Assembly: GCA_051313645.2 (NCBI GenBank)
Contig: JBNRSN020000024.1
Location: forward strand, 48,918,001-48,982,000
Origin: Centroscyllium fabricii
Taxonomy: Eukaryota
Direction: 5' to 3'
DNA: 64,000 nucleotides
The position numbers and the translations under genes are program-made. This document shows positions 893-62,300 of this stretch, one piece after another. The notes under the pieces were generated by a model, which did no database searches, was not told the DNA's origin, and saw nothing but the letters and a program-made list of their open reading frames with translations. Position 1 is the first letter of the stretch, and every line of letters begins with the position of its first letter.

Positions 893-1010
893 CCATATTC
901 ACCCAGATGTTGGACTGTTGTGTACGCGTGGCTGGTTGCTGACGCAAGAAAAGTAGGTAGCGAGGAAACAATTCCAACTCGGCTTGATTACTCGTCGTGT
1001 TTTTAATTAC
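893..1010 (-). CDS. USP32: USP32 exon ~16 (VIKNTTSNQAELELFPRYLLFLRQQPATRTQQSNIWVNM); an alternative donor extends it to 851
   Basis: Acceptor atttag|GTAATT, donor ATATGG|gtatga (118 nt); second in-frame donor CCAGAG|gtaatg 42 nt downstream. Confidence 0.93.
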
Positions 1011-16000: not shown

Positions 16001-19000
16001 ACAAAGCCTAGAGGTTATACATTCTGCGGTCAATTACCATTGGTGAGGTAAGTTTGCTGATTGGCAGATACTTGTAAATGTCCAGCTACCTGTGGTATTA
16101 CACAGGAATAGTCTGTGGTGTGGATCACAGTTGTGATCTTCAGCTGCACACCGAGCTTATAAGGACAAGGCCACTGCTCAAATGCTCCCTGTTGGAAGCA
16201 GGTAATAAGAGCAAATTAATTCTTCAGATCAATTCGAGGTTAGAAACATAGAAAAATAGGAGCAGGAGTCGGCCATTCAGCCCTTCGAGCCTACTCCACC
16301 ATTCAATATGATCATGGCAAATCCTCTATCTCAATACCATATTATCGCTCTCCCCATACCCCTTGATGTCTTTTGTGTCTAGAAATCTATCTATCTCCTT
16401 CTTAAATATATTCAGTGATTGGCCTCCACAGCCTTCTGTGGTAGAGAATTCCACAGGTTCACCACCCTCTGAGTGAAGACATTTCTCCTCATCTCAGTCC
16501 TAAATATCCTACCCCGTATCCTGAGACTATGACCCCTCGTTCTAGAACCCCCCAGCCAGGGGAAATATCCTCCCTGCATCCAATCTGTCTAGGTTAATAA
16601 ATTGCTTGTAAGCTTTAGGCTCTAGATTAAATAGTGGACTTCCGGAGGACTGGAAGCAGAAGACACACCCCCATCTTCATCCAAGGGGCTGAGGTGGAAA
16701 GGGTGTCCAGCTTCAAGTCCCTCGGGGTCCACATCTCGGAAGATCTCTCCTGGTCACTAAACACCTCCTCTCTGGTTAAGAAGGCCCAACAGCGCCTGTA
16801 CTTCCTAAGGAAGCTGAAGAAAGCCAGGCTGTCATCCGGCATCCTCTCCAACTTCTACCGCTGCACAATAGAAAGCATACTGTCAAGCTGCATCACTGTC
16901 TGGTATGGTAATTGCACTATCTCGGACCGGAAAACCCTGCAGCGGGTAGTCAAAACTGCCCAACGAATTACCGGTACACAGCTACCGTCAATGGAAAGCA
17001 TCTACCTCAAACGCTGCTTACGGAGGTCTATGAACATTATTAAAGACCCCACACACCCCAGCCACAGTCTGTTCGCCCCCCTGCCCTCCGGGAGACGCTA
17101 CAGAGCAATTTGCACCCGCACGACTAGATTTCAGAACAGCTTCTTCCCCAGGGCTGTCAGCCTCCTGAATTCTAAAAAGAAACTCCGGTACCTGCACGCC
17201 TGATAATGTACTCTACTGTATGCATTTTGCATGTAATTTATTTATTTTATTTGCACTACTCTTGGGAGTTGAGTCTTCGTCTCGTTGTATTGTACTAGTA
17301 CTCTGCAATGACAATAAAACTTGAATTGAATTGAATTGAAATGGCTTGTTTGCTTGCCTTCTTTTTAAAAAAGATTGCTTTGCCTCGAACAAAGCATGAC
17401 ATCTGCAGTGTTCTCTAGTCTGACCTTTTAGGAAGCATTAAAAAAAAAAGTTTAGCGATTACTCACATATTTCACATATTCCTTCCACTGCTGCCACCAT
17501 TGCACTGAAATCAGAAACCAGTTATGTCCGGGTTGCAGGCCATGTCTGCTTTCTCTTTCCAGCCATCCACTAGATACAAGATACACACACAATTAGCAAT
17601 GATATACAATTAAAAGCAGGGATTCCCAAAACAAATGAGTTCAAAATTACACTGCATGCTATTTTAACAATGCCGTTCGTGCCTCCATTAAGATAGCAGA
17701 CAAAGTAATTTTAGACTTCGGCAAGTAATATTCCACATCATAATTCCAAGACTATGATTACTAATTGCTGTGTTGACTTATACAACAAAAAGTTGTATTA
17801 AACGAATGTGGGTCAGCTTGGAGGCACGCAGCTGGTGGTGTCTCTCAGGGATCAGTCCTAGACCTACGAATGTTCACTATCATTATTAATGACCTGGACA
17901 GTGGAGGAGTGCAATCAAATGCAAAGTGATTTAGATACATTAGGGGAGTAGGCCATACAATGGCACATGTCATTTAACTTGATAACAGAATATTTCTATC
18001 ATTTGCTGGGAAAAATTATGAAAGAAGTTGAGAGTGCAAAAGTAGGCGTTGTTGAGCACAGATCACTGAAAGTGTATGACCAATCTAGAGAAGCTGTAGC
18101 TAAAGCTAACCATGTATTGGGTTGCATTAATAGAACCATTCAGTACAAATCAAAAGGACAACATTCTGTCATTCTGCAGGTTGCTGATTAGACCGCATCT
18201 GGAGTACTGCATCCAGTTTTGGTCGCCTCACATTGTGCGTGATATAGTGGCCTTGGAAAAGGTCCAGAGGAGAGCTCTGAGAATGTTTATTAGCTTAAAG
18301 AACCATAGCTACTCAGATAGGCTTAAGGGCTTGGGTCTATTTACTTTAGAGCAGCATAGACTTAGAGGTGACGTGATAGAGGTCTATAAAATCATTCAAG
18401 GGTTGGATAGCATGCCTATTGATAGATTATTCCAGTTTAACAGATTGGGAGGACCAGGGGACACGAGTTTAAATGTACAAGAGTAGGAATAGACTGGTTG
18501 TTAGACAGTTCTTCTACCAGAGAGTAGCGAGACTCCGGAATGCATTGCCAGCTGGTGCAGTGGGTGCGGACTGTCTGCATGCCTTCAAGAGGGAATTGGA
18601 CCGGTTCTTGACTGAGGCAGAGATTGCATCACATAGAAGGTAAGTGGCTTTACAGATAACACATGGTCCATGCCATCTCCTGGACTGGTTTTGATCACGA
18701 GGGGGCCAGGGAGGTATTTTCCCCCTTATTGGCCCCGGGTTTTTCTGTTTTTGTTGCCTCTCCCAGGAGATTACATGGCTGCGGTAGGGGAAGGCAAGAG
18801 AGTGTGTCTAGTCATGATGCTCCATGTGTCAACTTTGTATGTTCCATAAAGACCAACTTCCACGGACTGCAGAATTCCAATTAAACATGAGATTTCCTTA
18901 ATTTGAGAAACAACCTGAACACTGTATTTCAAGCATAAAATCTTATTGACAGTAAATAACTTTCTAAAATTCATCATAAAAATGTTGCATTGCTGGAGGC

Positions 19001-34000: not shown

Positions 34001-37000
34001 TCAAAAATAGTGGCCACTTACCACTAACAGATGAATTTTCTTTGAACCATTGTACAACTGTCCAATCTACTAAAACTTACATTTCTGCCTTTCAGCAAGA
34101 GGTCCTCTACAGCAAGCAGAAAGCCCACAAGAAATTTCTTTGAAGTCTATGTGATTGTCACGATTTTCATCAAAAGCACTGAATAAACCTGTAAAGGATG
34201 CCCAGTAAGTTGACAATACAGTCCATAAGAGGATATTTACTGTAATAACATCTTGCATAGATCACAGTCTCAGATATATTTTTAATAGTATCATCAGTAT
34301 ATGTTTTATCTTCTGACTTTCCATGGTATTTCTCAGATAGAATTCTATATGATATTTGCAGTAAACACTTGCAAATCAATGGGCCCTGACTTCCTGTGCT
34401 CCAGAAGAGCTGCACCCCCACGAAGGGGGGTCCGAAATGCCTCGTGGGGGTGCAGCTCGGGTGATTACCAGAAACGTGAACTTCCTGTGCTGATGGGCAA
34501 GGGGCTTCAGCTTCCTACCCAGGAAGACTTTGAGCTGCAGACTTCCTGTGGCAGCTGCTCAAAATGCGGGTGTATCACGTGGGCAAGTCTCTCTTTTGCT
34601 GCACATATAAAAAGCAGTCTTAAGAGGCTGCAGGCAGCTTTGAGAAGTGAAAAAAACACATTTAAAGTTAAAACAAATTTGATTCCTTTGGAGATATTTG
34701 TCTGTGGTCTTTCAGCTTGTAAATGTGAAGGTTTTTATATATTTTGGTGAAAGTGAAAAAAAACGGGGATTTGAACGCGATGTCAGCAGCTCTGATGGGC
34801 CAACAGAGCGGCTGACATCGCGTTCAAATCCCCGTTTTTTTTCACTTTCACCAAAATATATAAAAACCTTCACATTTACAAGCTGAAAGACCACAGACAA
34901 ATATCTCCAAAGGAATCAATTTTTAAAAAACTTTAAACGTGTTTTTTTCACTGGAGAAAAAAAAACCCCAACATCAGAAAAGGCAGAAACTTAAAAAAAC
35001 CAGCTTCCTAGAAACTGAAAAAACCCAAAAAAAGGTGCTTCCCTACCGGATATTCTTCATCCCGCAGGCTGATTCGGTGCTTTGTGCGGGGGTAAAGCCG
35101 ACCTCAGTGGGCGTGGCTTGCACCCCGCACCAAAAAAAACACGACCCCTCCGAACGAAAAAAACCCGGCTTTTTGCACAGGAAGTTCACGTGACAGAAAA
35201 AAAAAAAATTACCTGCGCGTGCGCCGCGGGTGCACGTCAGCGCGCACCCGCAGCAATCGGGCCACAGGAAGACATGGCCCATTATCAACTAAGAGTAGAT
35301 TTTCACTTTATGGACTTTTGTTAGTTCAAGAGTTTAACCAAATCCACCTTAGACCCTGTTTATAATCATAGAATCATAGAAACTTTACAGTGCGGATAAA
35401 GGCCATTCGGCCCATCCAGTCCGCACCGGCCCAGGAAACTCCTCACTATACTAACCCCATTTGCCCGCACCTGGCCCATAACCCTGTATGTTACGGTCCT
35501 TCATGTGCTGGTCCAAATATTTTTTAAATGTTGCGATGGTTTCTGCCTCCACCACCCTTACAGGCAGGGAGTTCCACACTTCCACCACCCTCTGAGTAAA
35601 GAAATTTCTCCTTACCTCCCCCCTAAACCTCCCCCCCCTAATCTTGAATCTATGTCCCCTAGTACTTGACTCTCCCACCAAGGGAAACAATGCCCCTTTA
35701 TCCACCCTATCGTGTCCTCTCATAATAATCTGTGATTAAAAATGGTGAGTGATCTCAGGATTCCCAAGGCACTGTGCCTGTAGGTGGCGCCGTGATCATA
35801 CGGCTAGATGACTGAGTGATTACAAAGGAAAGCTTATGATTTCATAGAATCCCTACAGTGCAGATAGAGGCCATTTCGGCCCATCGAGCCTGCACTGACA
35901 CATATCCCACCCTATCCCCGTAACCCCAAATATTCAATCACCACTAACACTAAGGGTCAATTTATCATGGCCAATCGACCTAACCCGCACATCTTTGGAC
36001 TGTGGGAGGAAACCGGAGCACCCGGAGGAAACCCACGCAGACACGGGGAGAATGTGCAAACTCCACACAGATAGTCACCCGAGGCCGGATTTGAACCCGG
36101 GCCCCTAGAGCTGAGGCAACAGTGCTAACCACTATGCCGTGCCGCCCATATAAAACTGTTGGTGTTGTGTGACTTCTTACAATTGATTACAAAGGGACAG
36201 CAACAAAAGTTACGTGATGGCCCCAAACTGCACGCTCAATAATTCCTGCGCACCCTCATTAGCTCGTTCAAATAAAATTGCGAATGCTTTCTTCCAGGAA
36301 TCAGACAAGCAAACAAAGTGTTAAGCTACCTCTATGTCTTCAACTGACAACAATATGAATCTGTTGTAGCTAAATACAGCAACACCTTGCATTTATATAG
36401 TGCCTTTAGCGTAGTAAAATGTCCCATGGTGCTTCACAGGAGCGCTACCAAACAACATTTGGCACCATGCCACATAGGGCATATCAGGACAGATGGCCAA
36501 AAGCTTGGTCAAAGAGGTAGGTTTTAAAGGACAGAGAGATACAGAGGCTCAGGGAGGAAATTCCAGAGCTATGGGCCTAGGTAGCTGAAAGCACACCCCC
36601 AGTGGTGGAGATCGAGGATGCTGAGGCCAGAATTGGAGGAGCACAAAGATCTTGGCGGGTTGGAGGGCCGGGGGGGGGGGGGAAAGGGGGGGAAAGAGAG
36701 AAAGGGAGGGGCGAGGATTTGAAAACAAGGATGAGAATTTTAAAATTGGGGCATTGCCAGATCAGGAGGCAATGTATGTCAGTGAACACAGAGGTGCTGG
36801 TTGAACAAGACTTGGTGGGAGTTAGGATGTGGACAGCAGAGTTTGGATGAGCTTAAGTTTACAGAGGGTGCAAGGTGGGAGGCCGGCCAGGGGAGCATTG
36901 GAATAGTCAAGTCTAGAGATATGGATGAGGGTTTTAGCAGCAGATGAGCTGAGGCTGGGGCAAAGACGGGAGATGTTGCGGTGATGGAGAGGATATGGAG

Positions 37001-40000
37001 TAGGATGCTCAGCTCACGATTGCAAGAGTCCATCAGTGAATATTTTGAAGTAGTGCAATTGGGATAAAAATGTGGGGAAAAATAGAAGTGTAGAGTTGAC
37101 AGAATTATCACCGAGACAGAAAGTGACAAAACAGAATACTGGAAATCAGAACGCAGGCCCGCAAAGTGCAATCGTGAGCAGGATTTTGGAATAAGAACAG
37201 CACCAGCCCCCATGGGGCAGAAAATACAGACCGCCTCCTGCCTGTGACCAGAATTAGACACCCCTCCTCCAACTGAGCAGAAATTCTGGCCCCCTTTCCA
37301 CTGTGCAGACAGCATGGCACTGAGCAAGTAAGAAACATGTGAAGCATCTCAAGTAGAAGATTGTAAGCGAGCAAAGCACAATAGTGACTCAGCAATGATG
37401 TTAGTAAGCCAGGATAAGAAACAGCATGAATAGATCCTCATTGAGCAAGATGGCACTTGAAATTGTGACACCCCACCTTGCTCAGAGGAGAAATCTGGGC
37501 GTCTACCTTCCACCAAGCAGAAATCAGTTCACCTCAAGCCCAGTACTGGGGGAGTGCTGCACTATCGGAGGTGCTATCTTTCAGATGAGACATTAAACAG
37601 AGTCTCAGGTGGACATAAAAGATCCCATAGCAATATTCAAAGCAGAGCAGGGGAGTTCTCCCTGTGTCCAGTCCAAAATTTATCCCTCAACCAACATCAC
37701 TAAAATAGATTACCTGATCATTACCTCATTGCTGGTTAGGGGGCCTTGCCGTGTGCGAATTGGCTGGTGTGTTTCCCTAGGTAACAACAGTAACTAGACA
37801 TTAAAGGTACTTCATTCGCTGTAAAGCGCTTTGGGATGGCCTGAGGTCGTGAAAGGTGCTATACAAATGCAAGTTGTTTCTTCTTTCCCGACTCTGATGG
37901 AGGGCAAAGGAGGGCCGTCACACTCTGAGGACAATCCTACCATACAACACATACTTGCCGAGGGCAAAAATAACTTTGCCTTTCCTCCAACTCAGAGGAC
38001 GAATTAAGCCGCTGCCAGCCCCATCCATGAGTGCAAACTCATCCTTCCCATTTTCCCCCTCAAAGAACAAATCCATGTTCCCAGATGAGCTGAAGTTTGT
38101 CTGACTCTTGTATGCCCACTTGGAATTCAGCACCGCCGCCCTCCCCCCACTCCGTGAAGAGTCACTCAAACCCCTCCCAATGAGGAGCAAATTACCTCTC
38201 CCATCCAGAAAAATAACTCATGCCGCTCTAATCCCTCACCCTGAATCAGCTCAGCACCATTCCACACCCTTAATAGAAAACGTACCCGCTGAATGGTCTC
38301 TTCCACCCTCCTTCACACCCCCTGCTCTTTCCTCCACACTGAAGAAATGGACACACGCCCAGTGTCATGGACCCAACCATTGTCCTCTGCTGCTCCCTCT
38401 CCTCCAGCACATGTTCAGCCCTGTCCTTTTCCTCCTCTTCCCCCTGCCCCGCTCCATCTCTCCCACTGATCGTCCTCCCCCAGGTCAAGTGCCTGAATTG
38501 TGTTAGTGTTTCGACATAATGAACAAATAATCCATTACAATTGTAAGCTCATGCACATTTGTCTAGGCTATGTACATCCCAGCAAGAGGGAAAGGTAGGG
38601 GAACCGAAGTCAGGGTTCCTAGGATGACGAGGGAGATAGAGAATATGATGAAACAAATAAAAAAAGGGTGTATGATGCATGTCAGGTGAATTCTTCAAGT
38701 GAGAACCAGGCCAAATACAATACGTTGAGAGGTAAAGTGAAGAGGAAAATAATACTGGCAAAGAGAGAATGAGAATAGAATAGAATGGCAGTTAATATAA
38801 AAGGGAATCCAAAAATCTTCTACCAGCATGTAAATAGTAAGTGGGTAGTAAGAGGCAGGGTCTATTAGGGACAAAGGTGGTGATATATGCTTAGAGGCGC
38901 AGGGCAAGGCTAGAAGTACTTTGCATCGGTGTTTACCAAGGAAGAGGATGCTGACAAAATATCAGTAGAAGCGGCGATGGTAAGAGGTAACTGATGGGAG
39001 AAAATTTGGAAAGGCAGTATGTACTGGAAAGGCAGGATATGCTTAGAGTGGATAAGTCGCCTGGTCCGGATGGCTTGCATCCCAGGTTGCTAAGGGGAGT
39101 GGGGGTGGAGACAGCAGGAGGGCTTGCCCTAATTTTCCAATCTTCCCTAGATGTGGGGAAGGTGCCAGAGGGTTGGAAAGTGGCAAATGTAACACCCTTG
39201 TTCAAGAAAGGGTCCTGGTAACTACAGCCCGGTCAGTTTAACATCAGTGGTGGGTCAAGTTTTAGAAACAATAATCAGGGAAAAAATTAACAGGCACTTG
39301 GAGAGGTTTAAGTTAATTAAGATGAGCCAGCACGGATTTGTAAAAGGCAGATCGTGTTTGACTAATCTAATTGAATTTTTTGATGAAGTAACAGAGAAGG
39401 TTGATGAAGGGACTGCAGCGATGTTGTCTACAAGGATTTTTGGACGGCGTTTGACAATGTACCACATAAAAGGCTGGTTAACAACATTGAAGTTCATGGA
39501 ATAGGAGGGTCAGTGTCAGCTTGGATAAGAAATTGGCTTAAGAGCAGAAAACAGTGAGTTGTGGTAAATGGTTGTTTTTCCAAACAGGAGGATGGTAGAC
39601 AGTGGTGTTCCCCAAGGGTCAGTGCTAGGACCACTGATTTTAGTGATATATAAAATGACTTGGATATTTGAATACAGAGTAAAATTTCAAAACTTGCCAA
39701 TGATACCAAACTTGGAGCTGTGGCAAACAATGAGGATGATACCAATCAACTGCAACAGGATATAGAAAGGCTAGCAGAATGGGCAGACAAGTTGCAGATG
39801 GAATTTAATACAGAGAAGTGTGAGGTGATGCGTTTTGGCAGAAGGGATAGGGAGAGACAGTATAGACTTAATGGCACAGTTCCAAAGAGTGTGCAGGGAC
39901 AGAGGGACCTGGGGGTTCATGTGCATAGCTCTTTGAAGGTGGCAGGATATATTGAGAGTGTGGTTTGCAAAGCATATGGGATCTTGGGCTTCATAAATAG

Positions 40001-40823
40001 AGGTATTGAGTACAACAGCAGGGAAGTTAAGCTGAACCTTTATAAAGCGCTGGTTAGGCCACAACTGGAGTATTACACTTTAGGAAGGATGTGAAGGTCC
40101 TTGAGAGGGTGCAGAGGAGATTTACCAGAATGGTTCCAGGGATGAGGGATTTTAGCTACAAGCTGGGCTTGTTCTCCTTGGAGCAAAGGAGGTTGAGGTG
40201 TACAAGATTATGACGGGTTTGGATAAGGTAGACAAGAAAGGCTGTTCCCATTAGATAATGGTACAAGGTCTCGGGGGGGACAGACTTAAGGTTTTCGGCA
40301 AGAGATACAGGGGAGGATGTGAGAAAGAACTTTTTTACGCAGTGAGTAGTAATGACCTGGAACTCGCTGCCGACGAGGGTGGTGGAAGCGGAGAAGATCA
40401 ATGATTTCAAGGGGAAATTGGATAGGCACTTGAGGGAAATAATAGGCTACGGGGATAGAGCAGGGGAATGAAACTGACTGGATTGATCTACAGAGAGCCG
40501 GCATGGACTTGATGGGCTGAATGACTGTGACTCCAAAGTATCTGAATTCACAATAAAACTAAATGAACCAATTTCGGTCGGAGACCCATATTTTTGAAAG
40601 CATTTGCTGCCACAGTTTGACCTTAATTGGGTTCCAGTCATGTAGTTAACTCCCAGTATATATTATTCTCTCAGTAAACTGCCTCCATTACCTTCACTTA
40701 AAGATGGATGAATGGGTGGAGAAACTAAAGGAACAAATGTTTCCAAATCAAACCGTCCAGTCCTTGACTGAGCCTTAAGCAGCCAGTAGCGTTTCTCAAG
40801 ATCAATTATATCAGATTCTTCCA
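893..40823 (-). CDS. USP32: USP32 (ubiquitin carboxyl-terminal hydrolase 32), partial gene: 11 coding exons (about exons 6-16), EF-hand region and DUSP domain
   Basis: Exons of 132+108+116+63+84+62+103+184+176+141+118 = 1287 nt have canonical AG/GT boundaries and compatible phases. The peptides match USP32 as I recall it (EESDIIDLEKRYWLLKAQSRTGRFDLETF; FDENRDNHIDFKEISCGLSACCRGPLAERQK; WWQQWKEYVKY; VPEPVWRALYHWYG; ELFPRYLLFLRQQPATRTQQSNIWVNMG). Confidence 0.97.
1785..2065 (+). mobile_element. Degenerate tRNA-derived SINE
   Basis: tRNA-like head (GTAGCCTGGTGGTTA...GTGAGTTTATATCCC). The body (ACTGGTTTGCTAATATCCTTCAGGGAAGG...GGTTGACTCTCAATGC) resembles the reverse complement of the 55060-55340 copy. 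Confidence 0.6.
2411..2551 (-). CDS. USP32: USP32 exon ~15 (APTLTLEGGRLKRNPALVRGKDYEIVPEPVWRALYHWYGANLSLPRP)
   Basis: Acceptor ttgtaaag|GCTCCT, donor AGGCCT|gtaagt; 141 nt. Confidence 0.95.
2995..3535 (-). mobile_element. L2-clade LINE fragment (RT region)
   Basis: ORF 3269-3559 has SAAFDTVD...WFLSYLSSRSQ...PEGSILGPLLFLIYMLPL, typical L2/CR1 RT motifs. Confidence 0.8.
3905..4150 (+). mobile_element. HE1/V-SINE, 3' part
   Basis: CAGTCCAAAGATGTACGGGTTAGGTTGATTGG...AAATTGACCCTTAGTG matches the fuller copies at 35843 and 53474; CR1-type tail GGGCCGAATGGCCTACTCCTGCTCC. Confidence 0.8.
4949..5124 (-). CDS. USP32: USP32 exon ~14 (GLYQSSPPGTDACFPRQHNNSDNNGQCFLGANGNILAQLGPQKPGAIDNQLLVMQGSVK)
   Basis: Acceptor atttcag|GTTTAT, donor GTGAAG|gtatgg; 176 nt. 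Confidence 0.95.
5361..7435. mobile_element. Non-autonomous Tc1/mariner-type element, copy 1, carrying a minisatellite
   Basis: TA|CAGGTTGAGCACCGGTAATCCGGCACCC ... GGGTGCCGGATTAACGATGCTCAACCTG|TA; ~28-bp TIR and TA target-site duplication. Confidence 0.88.
5570..7350. repeat. 31-bp GC-rich minisatellite (GGGGAGTGTTCTACCGCGCGCTCCGGGCCCC)n, roughly 57 units
   Basis: Direct inspection; near-perfect core with variant units at both ends. Confidence 0.97.
8160..8343 (-). CDS. USP32: USP32 exon ~13 (EAKPVILEPSSIMNLVK...CFDNISIASEASESTGT)
   Basis: Acceptor ttacag|GAAGCA, donor GCACTG|gtaacg; 184 nt, phase 0-1. Confidence 0.93.
9837..10338. mobile_element. Tc1/mariner-type MITE, copy 2
   Basis: TA|CAGGTTGAGCACCGGTAATTCGGCACC ... 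GGTGCCGTATTAACGGTGCTCAACCTG|TA; internal ~30-bp duplication GTCCCAGGACCGCGAATCTACGTACCTCCC. Confidence 0.88.
11625..12372 (-). mobile_element. CR1 (HER1-like) LINE, 5'-truncated
   Basis: ORF 11894-12316 ([40 protein letters not shown]) followed by a CR1 3' UTR. Confidence 0.9.
13146..15914. mobile_element. Internally deleted PIF/Harbinger-like DNA transposon with a Myb/SANT-like ORF remnant
   Basis: Imperfect TIRs (GGTCGCGCTTTTGCCGGC / GCCGGCAAAATCCAGCCC) and a 3-bp CAT TSD. Frameshifted QRQRAAPRF..EGFRARREGLFP..RPPQETKAAWLQIAEE at ~13427-13630 is Myb/SANT-like. Confidence 0.7.
13990..15055 (-). mobile_element. CR1 LINE nested in the Harbinger-like element
   Basis: ORFs 14072-15024 contain SGVTQGSVLG, FVVYINDLD, ISKFADDTKIGG and RPQLEYCV. 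Confidence 0.9.
16243..16592 (-). mobile_element. CR1 LINE 3' end
   Basis: TAGAAACATAGAAAAATAGGAGCAGGAGTCGGCCATTCAGCCC tail, similar to the 11625 copy. Confidence 0.8.
16628..17340 (+). mobile_element. Rex1/Babar LINE, 5'-truncated, with an uninterrupted C-terminal ORF
   Basis: ORF 16634-17203 (VERVSSFKSLGVHISEDLSW..KKAQQRLYFLRKLK..FYRCTIESILSSCITVWYGNC..LPSGRRYR..FFPRAV); tail GCAATGACAATAAAAC(TTGAA)n. Confidence 0.9.
17467..17569 (-). CDS. USP32: USP32 exon ~12 (GWLERESRHGLQPGHNWFLISVQWWQQWKEYVKY), DUSP domain start
   Basis: Acceptor atctag|TGGATG, donor AAATAT|gtgagt; 103 nt. Confidence 0.95.
17790..18830 (+). mobile_element. Older CR1 LINE fragment
   Basis: IRPHLEYCIQFWSP..LEKVQRRA..RLRGDVIEVYKII with frameshifts. 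Confidence 0.8.
19050..19111 (-). CDS. USP32: USP32 exon ~11 (ICHIVLGLRPATPEEEGQII)
   Basis: Acceptor tctgcag|ATATGC, donor TATCAG|gtgcac; 62 nt, phase 0-2. Confidence 0.94.
19900..20390 (+). mobile_element. CR1-group LINE 3' fragment (second family)
   Basis: MEYSPLAWISAAPTTHKKFDTIQ..AAVYTIYKMH..AGSKSWNSLPNSTVG; homologous to 49070-49560. Confidence 0.8.
20753..20894. mobile_element. Small hAT-type MITE
   Basis: TIR CAAAGTTCCCTGTAA / TTAAAGGGAACATTG; degenerate 8-bp TSD GTGCTTGC/GCGCGTGC; same type as 32194-32355. Confidence 0.55.
21400..21760 (-). mobile_element. Old tRNA-derived SINE
   Basis: Minus-strand B-box-like CTCCCAGGTTTGATCCCTGG near 21715-21735, followed by a degenerate body. 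Confidence 0.45.
21796..22042. mobile_element. Tc1/mariner-type MITE, copy 3 (minimal; inverted relative to copies 1 and 2)
   Basis: TA|CAGGTCGAGCACCGTTAATCTGGCACC ... GTCCGGATTAACGATGCCGGACCTG|TA. Confidence 0.85.
22251..22334 (-). CDS. USP32: USP32 exon ~10 (MGHLTLEDYQIWSVKSALASEFLNLLFQ)
   Basis: Acceptor gacag|ATGGGA, donor TTTCAG|gttagt; 84 nt. Confidence 0.95.
24769..25542. mobile_element. Harbinger-like MITE, family A, copy 1
   Basis: Ends GGTGGGGATTTT / AAAATTCCCCCC, 3-bp ATA TSD; colinear with 28744-29533. Confidence 0.7.
26973..27955. mobile_element. Harbinger-like MITE, family B
   Basis: Perfect 17-bp TIR GGCCCAAAAATTAGGGT / ACCCTAATTTTTGGGCC; 3-bp ATT TSD. Confidence 0.85.
28744..29533. 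mobile_element. Harbinger-like MITE, family A, copy 2
   Basis: GGGGGGATTTTTCCTGGAGGTGCGGGAACCTGGCGGG...; aligns along its length with 24769-25542. Confidence 0.7.
30603..30665 (-). CDS. USP32: USP32 exon ~9 (ELHMGTADIVNHILKKHDTTK)
   Basis: Acceptor tttcctcag|GAATTG, donor ACTAAG|gtgaat; 63 nt, phase 0-0. Confidence 0.93.
31676..31893. repeat. ~215-bp interspersed repeat, copy 1 (direct repeat of 32957-33175)
   Basis: GAATTCAGAGGGTCGAATAGGGATGATTATTTTGCCTGC...GGACTATCTGATGAATGTAAC is closely similar to the second copy. Confidence 0.8.
32194..32355. mobile_element. Small hAT-type MITE
   Basis: TIR CAACGTTCCC / GGGAACACTG; 8-bp TSD CCCACCAC/CCCACCGC. Confidence 0.65.
32640..32755 (-). CDS. 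USP32: USP32 exon ~8 (FCFKVFDTDRDGALSRTELEEMVIALLEVWKDNRTDSIP), EF-hand
   Basis: Acceptor cactag|TTTGTT, donor ATTCCT|gtaagt; 116 nt; EF-hand loop DTDRDGALSRTE. Confidence 0.95.
32957..33175. repeat. ~215-bp interspersed repeat, copy 2, inside a degenerate palindromic element (~32860-33280)
   Basis: Similar to 31676-31893; the flanks GAGAAAAGACAG and CTGTCTTTTCTC are inverted. Confidence 0.75.
33320..33613. repeat. Long inverted repeat (~95-bp arms, ~97-bp spacer), MITE-like
   Basis: TGTTAAAACAGTTCAAGCTGCAGTCGTTAGAGTGTTGCTCTGGAACGGGAATAATAGATCTAAATGATATA versus TATATCATTTAGATCTATTATTCCTGTTCCAGAGTAACACTCTTAACGACTGTAGCTTGAACTGTTTTAACA. Confidence 0.9.
33630..33830 (+). mobile_element. LF-SINE-like ancient SINE, 5' part
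   Basis: GAGGACTGGAT..CTTTCCACCACTGG..CTGGTTCAAATCCAACCCAG..CTCAGTCCAGTTTCTA..GCACTAATTGGCAC resembles the LF-SINE consensus as recalled; a more decayed copy lies near 31075-31240. Confidence 0.55.
34081..34188 (-). CDS. USP32: USP32 exon ~7 (GLFSAFDENRDNHIDFKEISCGLSACCRGPLAERQK), EF-hand
   Basis: Acceptor ctttacag|GTTTAT, donor AGAAAT|gtaagt; 108 nt; EF-hand loop DENRDNHIDFKE. Confidence 0.96.
34381..35280. mobile_element. Harbinger-like MITE with an internal 109-bp perfect inverted repeat
   Basis: TIR GGGCCCTGACTTCCTGTG / CACAGGAAGACATGGCCC; flanks AAT/ATT; inner arms 34679-34787 and 34811-34919. Confidence 0.8.
35365..35727 (-). mobile_element. CR1 LINE 3' end
   Basis: ORF 35451-35723 (TRGHRFKIRGGRFRGEVRRNFFTQRVVEVWNSLP) and an (ATCATAGA)n tail. 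Confidence 0.88.
35843..36147 (-). mobile_element. HE1/V-SINE, full length
   Basis: Minus strand reads GGGCGGCACGGCATAGTGGTTAGCACTG..GGGTTCAAATCCGG (tRNA A/B boxes), then V-domain TGTGTGGAGTTTGCACATTCTCCCCGTGTCTGCGTGGGTTTCCTCCGGGTGCTCCGG and a CR1 tail. Confidence 0.92.
36375..37010 (-). mobile_element. L2 LINE 3' fragment
   Basis: Tail TTGCATTTATATAGTGCCTTT and decayed ORF pieces (FKILILVFKS). Confidence 0.7.
37540..37890 (+). mobile_element. DeuSINE (SacSINE1/AmnSINE1-like)
   Basis: CTTTCAGATGAGACATTAAAC..CAGGTGGACATAAAAGATCCCATAGCA..GAGCAGGGGAGTTCTCCC Deu-domain-like body, then L2 tail GTAAAGCGCTTTGGGATG..GTGAAAGGTGCTATACAAATGCAAG. Confidence 0.8.
38575..40530 (+). mobile_element. CR1 LINE (~2 kb, frameshifted RT)
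   Basis: DKSPGPDGLHPR, WKVANVTPLFKKG, QHGFVKGRSCLTNLIEFF, SGVPQGSVLGP, RPQLEY. Confidence 0.93.
40692..40823 (-). CDS. USP32: USP32 exon ~6 (EESDIIDLEKRYWLLKAQSRTGRFDLETFVPLVSPPIHPSLSE)
   Basis: Acceptor ttcgcag|TGGAAG, donor GTGAAG|gtaatg; 132 nt, phase 1-1. Confidence 0.96.
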
Positions 40824-44827: not shown

Positions 44828-46111
44828 TATTGCAAAGCATGCAATTTTCTTGTAATATGCCGTACTAACCCTACTTTAAACTGAGTGGGTATGAAAGCTT
44901 TGGTGCAAATGTGCTTACTAAATTATGGTACAGTACACAGGTAAAAAGAAAAGTAGAATGCTGGAGATCTGAAATAAAAACAGAAAATGCTAAAAGCTCC
45001 GATAAGAAGCCCTACCTGAATCTTCCCTACACTGACTAACCTGCTGTACATTTTCTGTATTTTCGATTAACAGTACAATACAAATTTAAGCCTCAGTGCA
45101 TTACCAACTCTATAGATAGATAAACTATTTTAGAAGTTGCATAATTTCTTTTATAATACTTCAGTGTAATTTATTGTATATTGGTAGATGCATTGAAGGA
45201 AATGTGGAAATAATTCATTAATTTTAAATACGACTACATCATAGCAGCAGTTCTTGTGGCTTCACTTAAGAAACACAAAATGTGTTTCTGAAAGATTTCT
45301 ATGGACTCAAGTGAAAATATGACAAGAGACTCAATTTTAACGAGTGGGCGCAAGGGGCTGGCAAACCATCCTGACACCAGCAGCTTGAGGCTCGGGCGAT
45401 GTGAACTCCTGGGGCTCATTTGCATGTCCCCCAGTCATTCACCCACCCAAAACCAGCATTAAGAAGTAGCTGTCCGAGAGCGTAATGCCGAGTCGCAGGA
45501 AGGTGCCGCAGGGGAGCGAAGGAACGGTCCCTGGCATTCAGGTTCATCGTACGGAGCAGGATTTGGGAGAACCTAGAGCAGGGATGGCTGAAACACTCCT
45601 GCTCCTCCACTGGCCCCACAAAAAAAAACCCGAAACAAAATTTAAAATCTAAGCTGTTCGGATATAAATCTTCTGACTCCGACTCTCTTTCCAGTTAGGT
45701 TAATCTGAAGGGAAAGCCATAACCCATTCCCCGCTCAGGCCACTGTTTAAAATAGCAGGCGGGCTTTATTGGAGCCCAATATGCATATTTCTGGCAAGCA
45801 TCCTTCCCCCTTCTCAAAAGGGCAGGTTAAAATAGACAACTGCGTGAAGAAAGCGGAATTTCGGTAGGTAAAATCCAATGGCAATTTTAATTGCCCGTCT
45901 GTCCAGGTTCAAGACTGATTATTGATAGATTTGTTAGGCGAATGCATCATAGGATATGAAGCAAAGGCAGGAAATGGAGTTGAATGGGCTGAATGGCCTA
46001 CTCCTGGTTCCTATGAAATAAACATAATATTTGCTACATTTCAGGTGGCACTACAGTATTAACATGCAATGAAATGTGGATGAAAGAGAAGTTGACGTAG
46101 GGGGAAACAAT

Positions 46112-49689: not shown

Positions 49690-50940
49690 TTCAAAATGGA
49701 CTTCTCCATCTCCATTTCTGGGAATAGGCTGTTCACCAATGGCTACTCTAAGCCCACTGACTTCCACAGCTTCCTCGGCAACAACTTCCACCCACCCCGC
49801 TTCCTGTAAGGACTCTATTCCATTCTCCCAGTTTCTCCATCTCCGTCGCATCTGTTCAGATAATGCCACATTTCACACCACTGCTTCAGACGTCTTCCTT
49901 TTTCAATTAAGGATTCACTTCCACTGTGGTTGACAGATCCCTTGATCATGACCGTCCCATTTCCAGTACTTCTGCCCTGTCCTCACCCCCTCTCCCCTCA
50001 CCTCACGACAACAGGGTCCCCCTTTGTCCTCATTTCCACCTCACCAGCCTCCACAATCAACAGATCATCCTCCGCCATTTCCACCTCCAACAGTGCGATG
50101 CCACCACCAAACACATCTTCTCCTCCCCCTTCAGCATTCCAACGTGACCGTTCCCTCCGCGACTCCCTGGTCCACTCATCAAATCACCCCGAACACCCGC
50201 TCTCCTTCCTACGGCACCTTCACATAATAATGCAGGAGATGCAACACTGCTCTTTCACCATCTCCCTTCCCACCATTCAGTACCCCAAGCACTCCTGCCA
50301 AGTGAAACAAGTGTTTTGCCTGTACTTCTTCAAACCTGGTGCACTGTATTCGTTGCTCCTCTAAATTGGGGAGACCAAACGCAGATTGGGGGATCGCTTT
50401 GCTGAGCACCTCTGCAACAGTGACCCCGAGCTTCCGGGCGTTTGCCACTTTAATTCTCCATCCCACTCGGAGCTCTCTGCAATTTGCCGCCTACGCTGTT
50501 CCAACAAAGTTCAAGGAACGGCACCTCATCTTTCGATTAGGCACTTGCGGTCTCAACGTCAACTTCAACAACTTTAGATCATAACCACCACTCCCACTTT
50601 CTCGGGTGCTGATAATGGTTCTGCTGTTATCATTTACACCTCTTTTGGATTCACCTTTTGTTTCTTGTTGATCATTACCACTCCCTTTTGCCTTGCACCA
50701 TCATCCCTTCTGTCAATTCATCACTCCTGCCTTCCACCCCATCACAGAATGTTCCCTTTGCTCTTTCCTCCATTGCCCCCACTAGATCCCCGGGACCTCT
50801 GTATTTGCTTCAAAACCGTTCAATCTCCAACTTCTTCCAGTTGTGATGAAAGGTCATCCACCTACAATGTGAACTCTGTTTCTCTCTCCACAGATGCAGT
50901 CTGACCTGCTGAGTATTTCCAGCATTTTCCGTTTTAATTC
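49690..50940 (+). mobile_element. Penelope-like retroelement (degenerate RT thumb, GIY-YIG and pLTR)
   Basis: HPASCKDSIPFSQFLHLRRICSD; CIRCS..GETKRRLGDRFAEHL; decayed hammerhead/pLTR GTTGTGATGAAAGGTCATCCACCT..ACAGATGCAGTCTGACCTGCTGAG. Confidence 0.85.
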
Positions 50941-55920: not shown

Positions 55921-56972
55921 GATAGGCTGTTGTTCAAGCATAGAACCCACTAAAATTGTCCACATACATTTGTGTGCTTCAACTCCACCTACAGCACAGC
56001 AACAACTGAGACACTTGGCTGAGAAACTGCTGTCATCAGTCTAAATAGCGACCGTGGCACAATTCCAATGGCATTGAAATAGTAAGTCTCATGTCACACG
56101 AATAGAATTAACAGCCACTCAACATTATGTTTCATTTCCCTTGTGCAACAAACCTGAACAAACTGCAGCCCTCATGTGTCGTAGAAATTCTGCACTCAGA
56201 AAAATGGTATATTACACAGATAACCAAGCGGCATTTTCTTATACTGCAATGTGAATTGAATCTCATTCGTAGCAAAATCAATGGTACACTTCAGGACGTA
56301 CTATTACTTGCAGGGGCCCGATGTATATTCACTCACCTGCAGGTGCTATTCTTTCAGGCAGGCAGCAGTACAGGCATACCATAATCTAACCCGCACCGAC
56401 GATACTCGGCCAAGATTTATTATGCTCACCATACTCAAAACAAAATGTCCTTCAAAACAAGCTTAATAAAGACACCGATCAGCCAACAACAGAAGACCAT
56501 AAATCTAAGAAGTGCATTCAATTTATACAAATTAAATCTTTGCCACTTCTACAGCAAAATGAGGCATTCCAGCATGATGCCCAGAAGGTTACATGGAGAA
56601 AATCCGTCTGTTCAAAATACAGCTTCAAGAATTAAGAGGATAACAAGACAGGCCGATAATTAGATTGCACAAGCAATTTCTCTAATTGGCGTATGATGTC
56701 AAAACCGACTTTAAGGGACAAAAAAAGCCACTAATCAAACTTGCACAAGAGGATACTCATTTTGTCAGATTACATTAGCTGCTTGTAGACCTTGACTGTT
56801 GTATACATGTAACTGAGCATCTTTACAAATTATTTAGAAACTTTAGAATAGGGTGACCATACATCCCCGTTTTCCGGGGACAGTCCCCAGATGAGGTACT
56901 GTGTCCCTGGGAAAATAATGTCCCCGGATCACAAAATTCATCCACAAAATAGCCCAACTTTTAATTTCTCGT

Positions 56973-57992
56973 AATAACAACAGAAAATGCTGGAAAAACT
57001 CAGCGATAAAGGGAACCACCCGGAACGTTGACTCCTATTTCTCTCCACGGATGCTGCCTGAACTGCTGAGTTTTTCCAGCATTTTCTGTTGTTATTTCGG
57101 ATTTCCAGCATGCGCTCAAGGACGGCAGGATGCGGGAGGTCGGTCGGTCGCTGGCAGTCGGGAGTGAGCGGGGAGTTGGAGGTTCGGGGCTGCCGGCATG
57201 GCGGGCTGAGAGGTAGGTGCTAAGCCTTCGGACACGGCTCCTAGGTTTCGGAGCTCAGTGGATTTAGGGGATCTGGCAGAGCGTCAGGGCAAGGGGTGGG
57301 CCTCGGGCCTTCTGACGCGGTTCCCGGACCCAGGAGTTCAGGAGAATCTGGGGGACTGTGGAACAGGAAGCAGAAAAATCGGAACATTGAACTTTGAGAG
57401 CAGGAGAGGCCGGAGCGGTGCGGGAATGAATTGAAGATGGCGGCGCGCATAGACGCAGCAGCTTTGCGTCTCCCGAGATAATGCTGTCCGCTGGTTGTTC
57501 TGGATCTGTTCGCTCGGAGGGGATGGTATGGTCGGCGTGGTAGTGCACCGGGGTCAGCGCAACGGAATTGTCGGAGCACCGATGTGTCTGCGATCGGAGC
57601 ATCGGGGGCGCAACGAGGCCATCATGGTCGGAGTGCCGAGGCCTTGAGGTCGGAGTGTTCGGAGCCGGAGCCTGCGTGGTCACCGAGGTCGGAGCCTGCA
57701 TGGTTGGAGCGCCGGGGCCTTGGTCGCTGCGCCGGAGCCTGCGCGGTTGGAGCGCCGGGGCCTGTGTGGTCACCGGGGTCGGCGTGGTCATAGCGCCGGA
57801 GGTCGGCGAGTTCGGAGCGCCGGAGCCTGCATCTTCAGAGCAACAGCGTCGTCATGGAATAGAACAGACTGGGACTTCAGCAGAGGACATTTTAATATCT
57901 GCATTGTTTCTTGGGAGTTTGCAAGAATGCATTTCATGGCATTGTGTTTGTTCACTCTGCAATGACAATAAATTGAATTGAATTGAATTGAA
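56973..57992 (+). mobile_element. Composite non-autonomous retroposon (pLTR hairpin + GC-rich VNTR-like body + Rex1/Babar tail)
   Basis: 14-bp direct repeat TTTTAATTTCTCGT at 56959-56972 and 57993-58006; 3' end CTCTGCAATGACAATAAA(TTGAA)n as in the LINE at 17300-17340. Confidence 0.8.
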
Positions 57993-58588
57993 TTTTAATT
58001 TCTCGTGTTGGATTATGATGTACAACACACATACACTGCGCCGTTCACCCTAACTTGATTACACATTTCTTTCTCGGGCGCCCCATCAATTACAGCCACC
58101 GTGAACTCTGACTGGTTGCGAGGCCAGCCCTGAAGCGGGCTCAGTGGTTTAAGGGGCTGGTCTATTAGTTAGCATCCACGTCAATCGAGCACCGAGGGGT
58201 GGGCTCGTGCCACTAGCATGTTCGGCTGCGCTCCCGACACAGCCTCGCTTGACAACCAAACCCCCCATTTTCTTTCCCCCCCTCCTCTTCTTTTGCTATG
58301 GGGCGCACCAGTTTGAATCGCAGGTGGTTGCAAGCCGATTAGTCGGAGGGCTTCTGATTTAGTCATCTCTTCCACCCGCCCACCCACACAATTCAAAATG
58401 GTCGCAATTCGGAAGCCGATTGGATGCTCGGTCGGTGACAGTTACGCCCAATGATTCCATTATATGACAAAATATATTTTGAAAACATAGGTTGTCGACA
58501 TGAGCACAGCGGAAACAAAAGAACAGGTGTCAGCAGTGTAGACAGAGGCTATGAAAAACTGATGCTTCTGAACAGTGTTATTGTATTA

Positions 58589-59285
58589 CAGGTTGAGCAC
58601 CGTTAATCCGTGTCCCGAATAGCCGGCAGCTTCAGTCTGCCGGCACAAAATGCCCCGACTGCACTGCGCATGCGCAAAATGGCAGCCCCCATCGTGGCTT
58701 CAGCGAATGATCTGCGCATGCGCCGACCGCATGCGCAGATCATTCAAAACAGCTGCGGGTGTTTTGAATGATCTGCGCATGCGTCACCGGACGGTTAGCG
58801 CATGCGCAGATAATTCAATACGGCCGCCCGTTATTTTCTCGATCCGAAACAACAGAAATCTCTGGAGAAACTCAGCAGGCCAGGCAGCATCTGAAGAAAG
58901 GTCATCGACCTGAAACGTTAACTCTGCTTCTCTCTCCACCGATGCTGCCTGGCCTGCTGAATTTCTCCAGCGTTTTCTGTTATTACTTCAAAATGATCAT
59001 AGTCACACAGCTGTTGCTTAGTGACTGAGGCGGACAGTCACTAAGCAACAGCTGTCAGCCTGAGTCCCGCTCGGCGGCAGCAGCAACCCCAAAGGCGATG
59101 GAGAGGGACGGCGGACCCGGGCCCGATCTGCGCATGCGCGCGCCAGGCAATCGCAATGCTGCGCGCATGCGCGCGGCCATTTTGCCTGGCGCGCATGCGC
59201 AGTGTCCAAACTCGTTCTCCCGGTTTTTTCCATTTCCCGGCACGGGCCTGGTCCCGCCCGTGCCCGATTAACGGTGCTCAACCTG
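58589..59285. mobile_element. Tc1/mariner-type MITE, copy 5, with pLTR/hammerhead and hairpin cargo
   Basis: TA|CAGGTTGAGCACCGTTAATCCG ... CCGATTAACGGTGCTCAACCTG|TA. Confidence 0.88.
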
Positions 59286-59326
59286 TATTTATAAACAGTG
59301 TCTGAATGCACGTCAATAGTGTGACG

Positions 59327-59361
<35 letters not shown>

Positions 59362-62300
59362 TATTTGTAATGTATATGCGCAATTGTTAAAATATAGGCC
59401 GCTAAAAACATGTGCCTCGCTACGCTGCGCAACCTATATTTTGCGTTACACTTTGCTGTGCACCCACCCCGTGTCTCCCTGGATTTGGTTTTGAAAATAT
59501 GGTCGCCCCACTTTAGAACACTGCAGTATCACTCCTCGTATCTGCTCATCAATTTAAATACCAATCCCCTGAAAAGACACATTTCTGCAGGCTATCTCAA
59601 CTTTATAGGGCATTGTCTCCATGTGCTAATCTATTCACACTTCCTAAAGTTGGACATTACCACAAAATTAAACTCTCAAAGTATAGGAATTAAAATGCAG
59701 CTAGATAAGAACCCAATTTTAATATAAGCACAAACAAGCATCCTTTTGTCCTTGCCAAAAATAAATTCCATTTGATGTGGTGCGTTGGAGTGGGGGAGGA
59801 AAACCTACAGCTCAGTAAAGATTATTCTGAAGTCAAAAATCAAAAATATACAAACCCAAATCACGGAACAGGCTATAACACCCTTTTAACACTCCACAGA
59901 ACCCGAGATATAATGCACTTGGTTTATGCTTTCATTACAAATAGGGAAACCATATCAAACAACTGTTTCTGCAACCAGTGTTCCCTGCAAGGTGTGCGGC
60001 TGCGCATCGCTGCAGCGAACCTGCACTGCCGGCATTTTCAATGTAAAAACCGCGCATGTGCGGTATTTTGAATGACGCAGGGCCAAAAAAAAGACAGGGC
60101 ACATCGTCTGCAACATGACTCAATAGCAAACCTTTGGCCAGCATTTAAAACTATGGCAGGCACAGGATCAACAGAATTATCTAATATTTTTTGCCAGATA
60201 AAGTTGATAGAATTCACACATCCTTCTTGGATGCTATGGTCAATAATATTTCAGACTTGTGTTCAACATGATAAAATTTCAAGACTTTATGGGCCATCAT
60301 CTCTCAACAATCCAACAGCAGTTCCTGTACAAGGACTTTCCCCATCATCCGGAAGCTGCAACTTTTTTACCCATTTTACAGTATTTGCAGTAACCTGTTT
60401 ACTGGACTCATTGCAGTTGTGTGCGGCACTATCAAACTTTTCAAAATAGGAGATATTACCACAGAGCAGCATTTATAGACTGAAGTAATCAAGCTCTTTT
60501 TTTAACAATTATGTGATATACAGCACAAAACTCGATAAATATCAAGAGTAGGATATATAATTAAGAGTCTTGCATCTACTGCGAATCACTCTCCTCAAAA
60601 GGCACCACAACCTCAAAAGGGCCGTGTTTCTGTATTGCAGGCAGTAGCTAGTGGGGACATGGGCATGGGGAAGAAAGAGAACTCTTTTTAAGATTTTGTC
60701 CAGGACAATGGGAACAATAAAAAGACAATGGTGTTAAGTAGAGTAGCAGCTATTGACTTAGGCAAGGCAACTGAAGAGAAGTCAGCTGAGGGCTGTCTGG
60801 GATGATAGGATCAGGCTTGAGTAAGGAGTGAGAGACATGGTTCCAGCAGTGGACAAGGCTGTGGACGTGGGGAGGGATTGTAAGTGAGAGGAGCAATAAT
60901 GGAGACACATGAATAGTGAAGTGAGGTGGTAAGGAGTTTAGGAGGACAGAAAAGGACTAAAAAAAAAATTAAAACTTCAAATTTATAATGTTTTGAATGA
61001 CCTTAACAAGTCTGGATGAATGAAACATCAGGAAACCTCAAATTTTTATGCGTTTCCAAATTGACACTTTCAGGACAGAGCCTGAAATTGCACACAAGCT
61101 CAAACAGTTACTTTAGCATTAATTTTAAATATACTCTCCTGCAGCTGTTGCTTGTTATGTGGTATTTAAGCTTGAAATATCCTATTACAGCATTACCTAC
61201 AGGCAAAATGGGTACTGCAGTTTAATGTTGACATTCATAATGAATTCTCCCACAGATAGAGCCTGACATACAATTTTTCAAAGCAATTTGAAATGCAACG
61301 TTGCTATGCACTCAACGATTTTAATAGATAATAGTCTTATGTATAGTGTGCACTTACTTCCTGCATCGTTCCCCCGTCACACTTTATTTGTAACACCCTT
61401 CTGATAAAACAGTGTCTTCTTTCCAACTGCAGGATTGGAGGTTTTGTGACCTGCTTTATGTTGGATAATGAGGTAGAAAACCAAGCTGAAAGGGAAAAGG
61501 AAAAACTAACCTGCCCCATCATATGCTGGCTGCAAAATCCCATATTGCTGGCTGATCAATGCAATCAGTGAGAAGATTTGCAGCCTTAAGGAGCTCCGGT
61601 AGAAGAACTTTTGCAAGAAAAACATACTATTGGTTATTTCCCTCTTTACTAGCTGCAGAACACTTTTACCTGTAAGGTTTTTTAATGCATGGTATTACAC
61701 CGCACAAAAAGTGCACGCAAGCATTGTAAAGGCTATTCTGCATCACGCAAAAACATACAACTTGGGATTACCCGGTGGGATACCAGTCAATGAACACCTA
61801 ATTGGCCTATCTGAAATTCCTCTCTCCACTACTTTCGAGGAGGCATTTAGCTCTTGCGGAATCAACAGCGAGAGGAACTTCAGATGAATGTGTTCTGTTT
61901 GATAATGTCGGCATAATTTCGGGAAGTTATCTATTGAAGTACTTACTGAATTTTTTAAACCCTTGCTCCTTCATCCAGTTACTCAAAGATCACACATAAA
62001 AATCAAAGGACGACAATTTTTTATGATCTCCGATTGCCACCAGGGAAATCATGAAACTGTATTATGAGGAAAGAATCAGAATGGATTGGTCTGCGAGATG
62101 CACAGAAGCTTACCAGCTGCCACGGACACCATAATCAATTATATGAGAAACCTTCATATCAGCTGTCAGAACAAATACTTCCAAGCTCAACGGTTATATT
62201 GCAGTATAAACCCTTCCACTGTTCATTTCATTCACCTCTTAGTGCCAGAGTTTATGCCACTCCAGGGGAGGATGAAATTGGTGACAATATCTAACTGGAA

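Follow-up and report, generated by a model that had tools for sequence, protein, structure and literature searches.

A gene-less insertion in Centroscyllium fabricii that probably joins the two ends of a Rex1/Babar LINE across a GC-rich minisatellite

Described relatives and how the locus compares

Among retroposons that travel without genes of their own, the closest described counterparts of the locus reported here are the bipartite LINEs (RTE-N, Bov-A, RIME/ingi, NARTc, Vingi-N and R2 SIDE), which retain the 5' and 3' ends of a LINE, possess neither an ORF nor a small-RNA head, are moved by the parent LINE and are presumed to be transcribed by Pol II (PMC5786205). In the account of Kojima (2018, PMC5786205) such ORF-less forms are reported from the RTE, Ingi, Vingi and R2 clades only, and that account leaves open whether the restriction reflects sampling bias or a requirement of transcription; several of the elements have 5' ribozymes. 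The subject of this study is a 1,020-bp unit in a 64,000-nucleotide stretch of the Centroscyllium fabricii genome (hereafter the window), enclosed by an exact pair of the 14-mer TTTTAATTTCTCGT. It appears to share the bipartite plan, and differs from the bipartite LINEs in its Rex1/Babar source, in keeping the first codons, in a variable GC-rich array at its middle and in extensions at its 5' end.

SVA and LAVA offer a second comparison: they too are non-autonomous and LINE-dependent, with a GC-rich variable array, a 14-bp target-site duplication (TSD) and variants that have gained sequence at the 5' end (PMC3287187). The unit has the GC-rich array of variable length but neither the poly(A) nor the L1 partner, its apparent partner being Rex1/Babar by way of a shared 3' UTR and TTGAA tail; it also lacks the (CCCTCT)n hexamer (TRF finds no hexamer array), the Alu-like part and SINE-R. 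Its array is built of units of 18-24 bp, against 36-51 in SVA, and common descent is not implied. The unit also resembles Penelope pLTR fragments and non-LTR retrozymes (PMC3846280, PMC4209133, PMC11167929, bioRxiv 10.64898/2026.07.22.740005) in its front of 139 bp, which derives from a pLTR and has an inverted arm as well as a hammerhead-like core. It departs from them in that this piece is single rather than tandem, has changed core positions and accounts for 14% of a unit closed by a Rex1 tail. Template-switch chimeras likewise consist of copies of two or three transcripts fused within one 14-bp TSD pair by a LINE reverse transcriptase (PMC2104539), but the fusion of front and core is here itself repeated, and at most the Penelope junction could be a one-off switch. 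The elasmobranch SINEs HE1, SacSINE1 and SINEX-1_CM resemble the unit in their dependence on a LINE tail and in their residence in cartilaginous fish, but have tRNA heads and CR1-type partners, and the unit has neither (PMC3747384).

Rex1 itself is described in a 2026 survey of the CR1 group as devoid of ORF1 and as reaching its highest abundance in rays, among others, and the term 'non-autonomous' is absent from that survey's main text (PMC13343379). The literature searched, which had most subscription journals outside its scope, yielded no non-autonomous Rex1/Babar; the core of the unit may already be catalogued as a curated repeat.

Anatomy of the insertion

The features are as follows, positions being counted from the first letter of the window.

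56849..59510, unstranded: host, a non-coding DNA element of presumed hAT type, with 13-bp terminal inverted repeats (11/13 match) and an 8-bp duplication
56959..56972, + strand: left 14-bp TSD copy, exact, 2 occurrences in the window
56973..57004, - strand: 32-bp copy of 57065-57096 in inverted orientation, a pseudo-LTR arm of Penelope type, beginning at the first base after the duplication
~57003-57029: decayed hammerhead-like core, within which the pseudo-LTR fragment starts, from sequence comparison
57005..57111, + strand: Penelope pseudo-LTR fragment, 80-86% identical to four other copies in the window
57112..57433, + strand: G-rich 5' extension, repeated, by contig depth far less than the core
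57434..57518, + strand: Rex1/Babar 5' end, namely the opening ~28 codons (MAAR...) with AAGATGGCGG, a start of TISU/YY1 type, aligning to L021 and L027
57530..57830, + strand: degenerate GC-rich minisatellite with units of ~18-24 bp, from TRF, self-comparison and contig joints
57889..57972, + strand: Rex1/Babar 3' UTR homologue, 60/85 columns identical to 17240-17318
57973..57992, + strand: (TTGAA)4 tail, from the sequence and a repeat scan
57993..58006, + strand: right TSD copy, an exact match to the left one
16610..17340 (left end approximate), + strand: 5'-truncated Rex1/Babar, likely partner family, PF09004 E 1.6e-19
49696..50939, + strand: decayed Penelope-like element (RT end, GIY-YIG, 3' pLTR) of the hairpin's source family, colinear with P0125, E 2e-37

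The two copies of the 14-mer are the only ones in the 64 kb, and neither can be extended. Contigs of two runs span the left junction with 0 (X1) and 1 (X7) differences, and the junction is therefore not an assembly artefact; X1, possibly the same sample as the source of the window, contains the locus itself, with flanks and left junction at 0 differences and a depth of 10.3-11.6. No empty site appears among the 15 joints listed, the tool having passed over the right junction (57961-58004). From 57101 to 57800, GC content is 55-75% and CpG is retained. No protein-coding body was found in the unit by Pfam, protein search or tblastn: its 144-aa frame has no Pfam match, the protein search drew none of 588 candidates for its 195-aa antisense frame, and 35 long proteins (>800 aa) set against it by tblastn gave only scattered matches, with a best E of 0.006 among those listed. 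Long frames over the array were rejected as genes, being artefacts of GC content and repetition. Nor does the unit show the tRNA, 5S or 7SL head of a SINE: ARAGORN reports 0 tRNA genes in it, a result that a strongly decayed head could escape, and across 56800-58200 no Rfam family reaches its gathering score, the matches being generic hairpins below it.

The surrounding element, which we take to be hAT from its 8-bp duplication (CTTTAGAA, at 56841-56848 and 59511-59518) and short terminal inverted repeats, houses a second insert at 58589-59285. With perfect 20-bp terminal inverted repeats flanked by TA and an abundance of GCGCATGCGC palindromes, this is presumably a Tc1/mariner-type MITE, and has a Penelope arm and pLTR nested at 58842-58989. 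Related MITE ends lie at 5359, 7437, 9829, 10344, 21792, 22044, 41363 and 42058; between the first two, a 31-bp minisatellite (5681-7350, 53.8 copies, 98% matches, several frames open) is an array that expanded recently within a DNA transposon. A near-perfect 49-bp hairpin at 34743-34855, whose Rfam miRNA match is below gathering score, is probably a small palindromic MITE, and RT fragments at 11894-12409, 14345-15030, 17786-18486 and 39423-40094 are, we assume, CR1-type, a normal background in such a genome.

The unit opens with a hairpin. Its arms (56973-57004 and 57065-57096) pair over 32 bp without a mismatch, and over 35 bp at 97%; a 33-bp stem dominates the fold. One of the four other pLTR copies follows a Penelope ORF remnant: 49696-50590 is colinear with P0125, a protein with RVT_1 and GIY-YIG, and the remnant's 3' end (50883-50939) is 86% identical to 57040-57096. 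This assignment came through P0125, a Pfam scan of the remnant's six frames having yielded nothing usable; the protein matches fall among Leucoraja, Heptranchias and Rhincodon, as would be expected in the genome of a cartilaginous fish. The arm-plus-pLTR layout recurs at 58842-58989, the same inverted arm being joined at the hammerhead start, and a short inverted Penelope piece at 44958-45005 has a junction that reads CGATAA as in the unit, whether by chance or as a shared subfamily junction. Penelope elements typically have inverted 5' pLTRs (PMC3846280), and pLTRs bear minimal hammerheads with a palindromic helix III (PMC4209133). In the unit, pLTR homology with an inverted 5' arm is limited to 56973-57111, a single piece at the 5' end, with neither a tandem arrangement nor a pLTR at the other end. 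Rfam has no hammerhead match in the unit or the window. Against a consensus core that we take to be CUGAUGA ... GAAA, the window has GCGATAA ... GGAA, and with several positions changed the ribozyme core is predicted to be inactive. A 5' end defined by an active ribozyme was rejected, given this altered core and a start that precedes the expected cleavage site by ~55 nt.

The head of the core is 57434-57518, where the reading frame is now broken by a stop and a short gap. Rex1/Babar copies for comparison were host DNA in metagenome and MAG contigs (40, 5 and 2 loci); the window's own LINE is 5'-truncated, and the 5' comparison is with teleost elements. In L021 and L027, among 12 long loci listed, the ORF opens with (A/G)AGATGGCGGCGCG, read MAAR, and the protein P0058 begins MAAREQ.... 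Aligned with the first 160 nt of these two elements, the whole unit matches both at 57434-57518, with scores of 46 (L021) and 51 (L027) against shuffle maxima of 32 and 33, neither real score being reached in 100 shuffles. When both strands of the window were scanned, the unit ranked top of 4,258 positions for L021 (44 vs 31) and L027 (51 vs 32), the runner-up being an unrelated place. The 5' ends of L023, L061 and L025 found no match at the head (1, 94 and 19 of 100 shuffles reached their scores, and the best match of L023 falls elsewhere in the unit), leaving two of the five full-length 5' ends tested that align there.

That score depends in part on the 12-nt motif: on its removal the unit still ranks first for L027 (33 vs 30) and trails two unrelated places for L021 (29 vs 31). 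The motif AAGATGGCGG has a single exact occurrence in the window, at 57434, and seven matches at one mismatch vs 3.3 expected, a number reached by 9 of 100 shuffles; taken alone it is not above chance. The alignment to the two elements continues in order, at the same place, for ~70 nt beyond it, and this further match appears real in position and order, though modest in score and near background. At 57504 the base in nearly all other copies agrees with L027, and one joint (2 contigs) falls exactly on 57434. Upstream of the ATG, L021 and L027 share ~8 nt and L025 and L026 share ~28 nt, from which Rex1 5' UTRs appear to be very short. In two fish loci (L021:109 and L027:389) the Rex1/Babar ORF starts in a TISU/YY1-type context a few bases from the shared 5' end. 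The sequence AAGATGGC is the core of TISU, which is found in ~4% of human promoters; this core acts both as a YY1 element and as the start codon of genes whose 5' UTRs are very short (PMC2518114).

Beyond the head, the array is loose: a 31-nt reference recurs in eight copies at 61-100% identity and a spacing of 20-52, and TRF reports periods of 18-24 with scores of 51-76. Eight of the 15 listed contig joints skip 44-135 nt inside it, and others go back (X1, X5 and X7), which fits an array whose length differs between copies, a pattern that repeat misplacement of reads can mimic in part.

The match of the 3' UTR to the window's LINE was reached by none of 300 shuffles; deprived of its last 19 nt, the final shared block, it scores 29, as did 3 of 300. 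Over the final stretch, 57954-57992 is 95% identical to 17300-17340, and CTCTGCAATGACAATAAA, at 17301 and 57955, occurs twice vs 0.08 expected. The 60/85 columns of likeness together with the (TTGAA)4 against 17240-17340 give the unit the 3' UTR and tail of the clade to which its head aligns. We take the LINE at 16610..17340 to be Rex1/Babar from its layout of RT followed by PF09004; a 190-aa frame carries the PF09004 match and is 60-72% identical to fish proteins with both domains. AATAAA and a 5-6-nt repeat end eight of 12 listed fish Rex1/Babar loci (L023, L024, L025, L026, L029, L038, L043 and L061), and a conserved 3' UTR with oligonucleotide repeats is a described Rex1 trait (PMC6274825). 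Loose contig ends at 57923 (X10, 2 contigs) and 57467 (X5, 1 contig) enter sequence with 10-11 nt of exact identity to the LINE 3' UTR, the second of which, leading straight from the head, hints at shorter bipartite forms. Exact-pattern scans found no tail in metagenome contigs and no head in genome contigs, and the Rex1 protein search of viral contigs returned 0 of 5 candidates. Three contaminated MAGs were rejected as sources of relatives, only the TTGAA repeat having matched, at 28 places in one of the three genomes. The species-representative MAG G002 ('Metamycoplasmataceae', 17.8 Mb) is heavily contaminated, consisting largely of animal host DNA with Rex1 relatives (L002, L003 and L005) and microsatellites.

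Most of what a preliminary description of this unit had listed withstands these comparisons: the 1,020 bp within a perfect 14-bp direct repeat are there exactly as claimed, the Penelope-pLTR-like hairpin, the decayed hammerhead-like core and the degenerate VNTR are all present, the last variable in length by the contig joints, no tRNA head has come to light, and the likeness of the 3' end to the Rex1/Babar LINE, 95% over the last 39 nt, spans ~85 nt in all, further than it had stated. The CpG-rich segment with a YY1-type motif also exists, but as the 5' end and first ~28 codons of the LINE, by the alignments to L021 and L027, rather than as an independent module; since very short Rex1 5' UTRs fit TISU, the remark on YY1 was right and the motif belongs to the LINE. 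Through this segment the outcome that the description had held against itself, an internally deleted Rex1/Babar (its own 5' UTR plus tail), is half realised.

Abundance and linkage of the parts

Contigs of four of the 15 listed runs (X1, X7, X10 and X5, from four studies) were aligned to 56760-58259 at 85% likeness, their summed depth being a measure of orders of magnitude only and not of copy number. On that scale the parts of the unit are strikingly unequal in X1, where the Penelope piece reaches 0.9-6.7 million, the front (57160-57359) 1,463-8,220, the head (57410-57509) 241-312 thousand and the body (57510-57959) 25-112 thousand, with host flanks at 40-4,180 and single copy at ~11. The head is likewise deeper than the front in X7 (9.9-11.8K vs 34-204), X10 (312-396 vs 9-50) and X5 (4.5-5.3K vs 20-44), and thus in all four runs, by ~6- to 350-fold depending on the bin; in X7 and X10 one bin of the body (57710-57759) drops into the range of the front. 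Read as orders of magnitude, the core would number thousands or more and the front hundreds. All bins from 57410 to 57959 are deep in the four runs, where overlapping pieces tile the core and no listed piece spans it; in the listed pieces other copies differ from the unit by 3-13%.

Depth climbs steeply from ~57390 within the G-rich front, and high depth begins ~40 nt upstream of 57434, so that the core may start before that position. Record 11 of X10 spans 57382-57466 with 6 differences and links front to head in another copy, and record 3 of X1, which covers 57160-57295 with 2 differences at a depth of 23.6 (double the single-copy value), hints that the front has a nearly identical sibling. 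Two spots in the front, 57373-57398 and 57426-57436, resemble Rex1-type tails: in other copies AATAA at 57377-57381 is followed by TTGAACTTTGA, and AATGAATTGAA continues into the head. With the step in depth nearby, the front may be the 3' end of an older element or a remnant of its target.

The Penelope piece stands apart. None of the 32 listed pieces carries the 57111/57112 junction in another copy; the seven listed rows of loose ends at 57111 or 57115, from four runs, continue without exception into a single common sequence foreign to the unit, and in X5 record 19 the likeness ceases at 57120, the 32 letters upstream being unlike. Further copies of the Penelope-to-front junction may lie among the 752 loose ends, 38 joints and 45,236 pieces outside the listing. 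A joint from 57091 to 57434 (2 contigs, side 29) was rejected as a second composite family, a few such neighbours being expected by chance, on a rough reckoning, among repeats this abundant; an argument on age, which set the perfect TSD and arms against the 3-13% difference between copies, was dropped (40 of the 130 difference rows were covered, and 11 of the 38 inside the unit are CpG decay).

The modular SVA-like family that the preliminary description had proposed thus survives in part: a non-tRNA retroposon with a Rex1/Babar tail, an array of variable length and, elsewhere, a link of front to head. That its four modules co-occur as a family is not supported by the listed pieces, their abundance being unequal and the Penelope piece joined to the rest in no other listed copy.

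Origin of the unit and its meaning

Because it combines a LINE 5' end with a LINE 3' UTR and tail and has no coding body, we read 57434-57992 as an internally deleted, bipartite Rex1/Babar. The whole is best explained, and we think probably so, as a single gene-less insertion in which the 3' 560 bp consist of a Rex1/Babar start and tail across a GC-rich minisatellite, likely copied into the site, along with a 460-bp passenger upstream, by Rex1/Babar enzymes; its likeness to SVA (LINE dependence, a GC-rich variable array, 5' pick-ups) would be one of analogy only.

In this explanation the highly repeated core, which comprises by alignment the LINE 5' end, variable array, LINE 3' UTR and (TTGAA)n, would have arisen by internal deletion of a Rex1/Babar, and its Pol II transcripts would begin at the TISU/YY1-type start or upstream of it. 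The Rex1/Babar protein would then bind the 3' UTR, nick an AT-rich site and prime on the TTGAA repeat, leaving a 14-bp duplication; the target begins TTTTAATT, resembling the tail. Such 3'-UTR recognition followed by target-primed reverse transcription is what we infer for Rex1/Babar by analogy with SINE/LINE pairs (PMC3747384), as is any stringency that Rex1 may show in it. A minority of copies appear to carry the G-rich 5' extension, and the Penelope piece, which is among the commonest repeats of the genome and whose hairpin would be the usual Penelope inverted-pLTR structure, may have been gained at the donor locus by upstream read-through, a 5' transduction with precedent in SVA (PMC3287187), or by template switching during insertion.

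A bolder account would make of these copies a family of thousands of minisatellite-cored, Rex1/Babar-derived retroposons in cartilaginous fish, a fifth bipartite clade with SVA-style 5' growth, and would place the copy here in a subfamily whose promoter or 5' cap is an acquired Penelope pseudo-LTR, joining the signals of two unrelated retrotransposon classes; we regard it as doubtful. Somewhat harder to credit is a fixed four-part family in which Penelope hairpin, G-rich part, array and Rex1 tail were amplified as a unit, the pLTR serving as a promoter or protective 5' hairpin. One exact TSD pair does bound everything, with the hairpin at its first base, the front is repeated in four runs and tied to the head in another copy, a near-identical sibling is possible (X1 record 3), and pLTRs are thought to hold promoters (PMC11167929), but the parts differ in depth by two to three orders of magnitude, and neither the 32 listed pieces nor X5 record 19 continues the unit across its Penelope junction.

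It is quite improbable that Penelope machinery made the 5' end, whether by later insertion of a fragment exactly at the 5' junction of a Rex1 insert or by mobilisation of the whole stretch in trans. An inverted beside a direct pLTR inside an 8-10-bp TSD, and the capture of unrelated sequence, are both known for Penelope (PMC3846280), and the inverted arm carries this copy's own variant letters and was therefore made from this lineage; yet at the 3' end (TTGAA)4 directly abuts the TSD, which is the Rex1 signature, with neither a second pLTR there nor a separate duplication around 56973-57111, and a chance insertion at the exact junction would be unlikely. Least credible is a head captured from a host CpG-island/TISU promoter, which would make the core SINE-like, host sequence and minisatellite being fused to the Rex1 tail. 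In its favour, AAGATGGC is the TISU core of ~4% of human promoters (PMC2518114), the match past the motif is modest and three of five Rex1 5' ends fail to align. Against it, the alignment of both L021 and L027 runs in order ~70 nt beyond the motif at one shared position of the unit, and within the core depth is greatest at the head, as it should be in a stretch common to LINEs and other derivatives.

Read as a bipartite Rex1/Babar, the core would have consequences for how such parasites are understood. The single Penelope-capped copy carries little weight unless it belongs to a subfamily. An abundant bipartite example from Rex1/Babar, if true, would favour sampling bias over a transcription requirement as the reason for the narrow distribution of these forms, and with a TISU/YY1-type motif only a few bases from the Rex1 5' end, head and tail together may suffice. 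Annotation is also affected, such copies being probably mislabelled as LINE fragments or unknown repeats. If the reading is true, a GC-rich variable array in a LINE parasite arose outside apes, and the core would be the first natural substrate on which the stringency of 3'-UTR recognition by Rex1/Babar could be tested.
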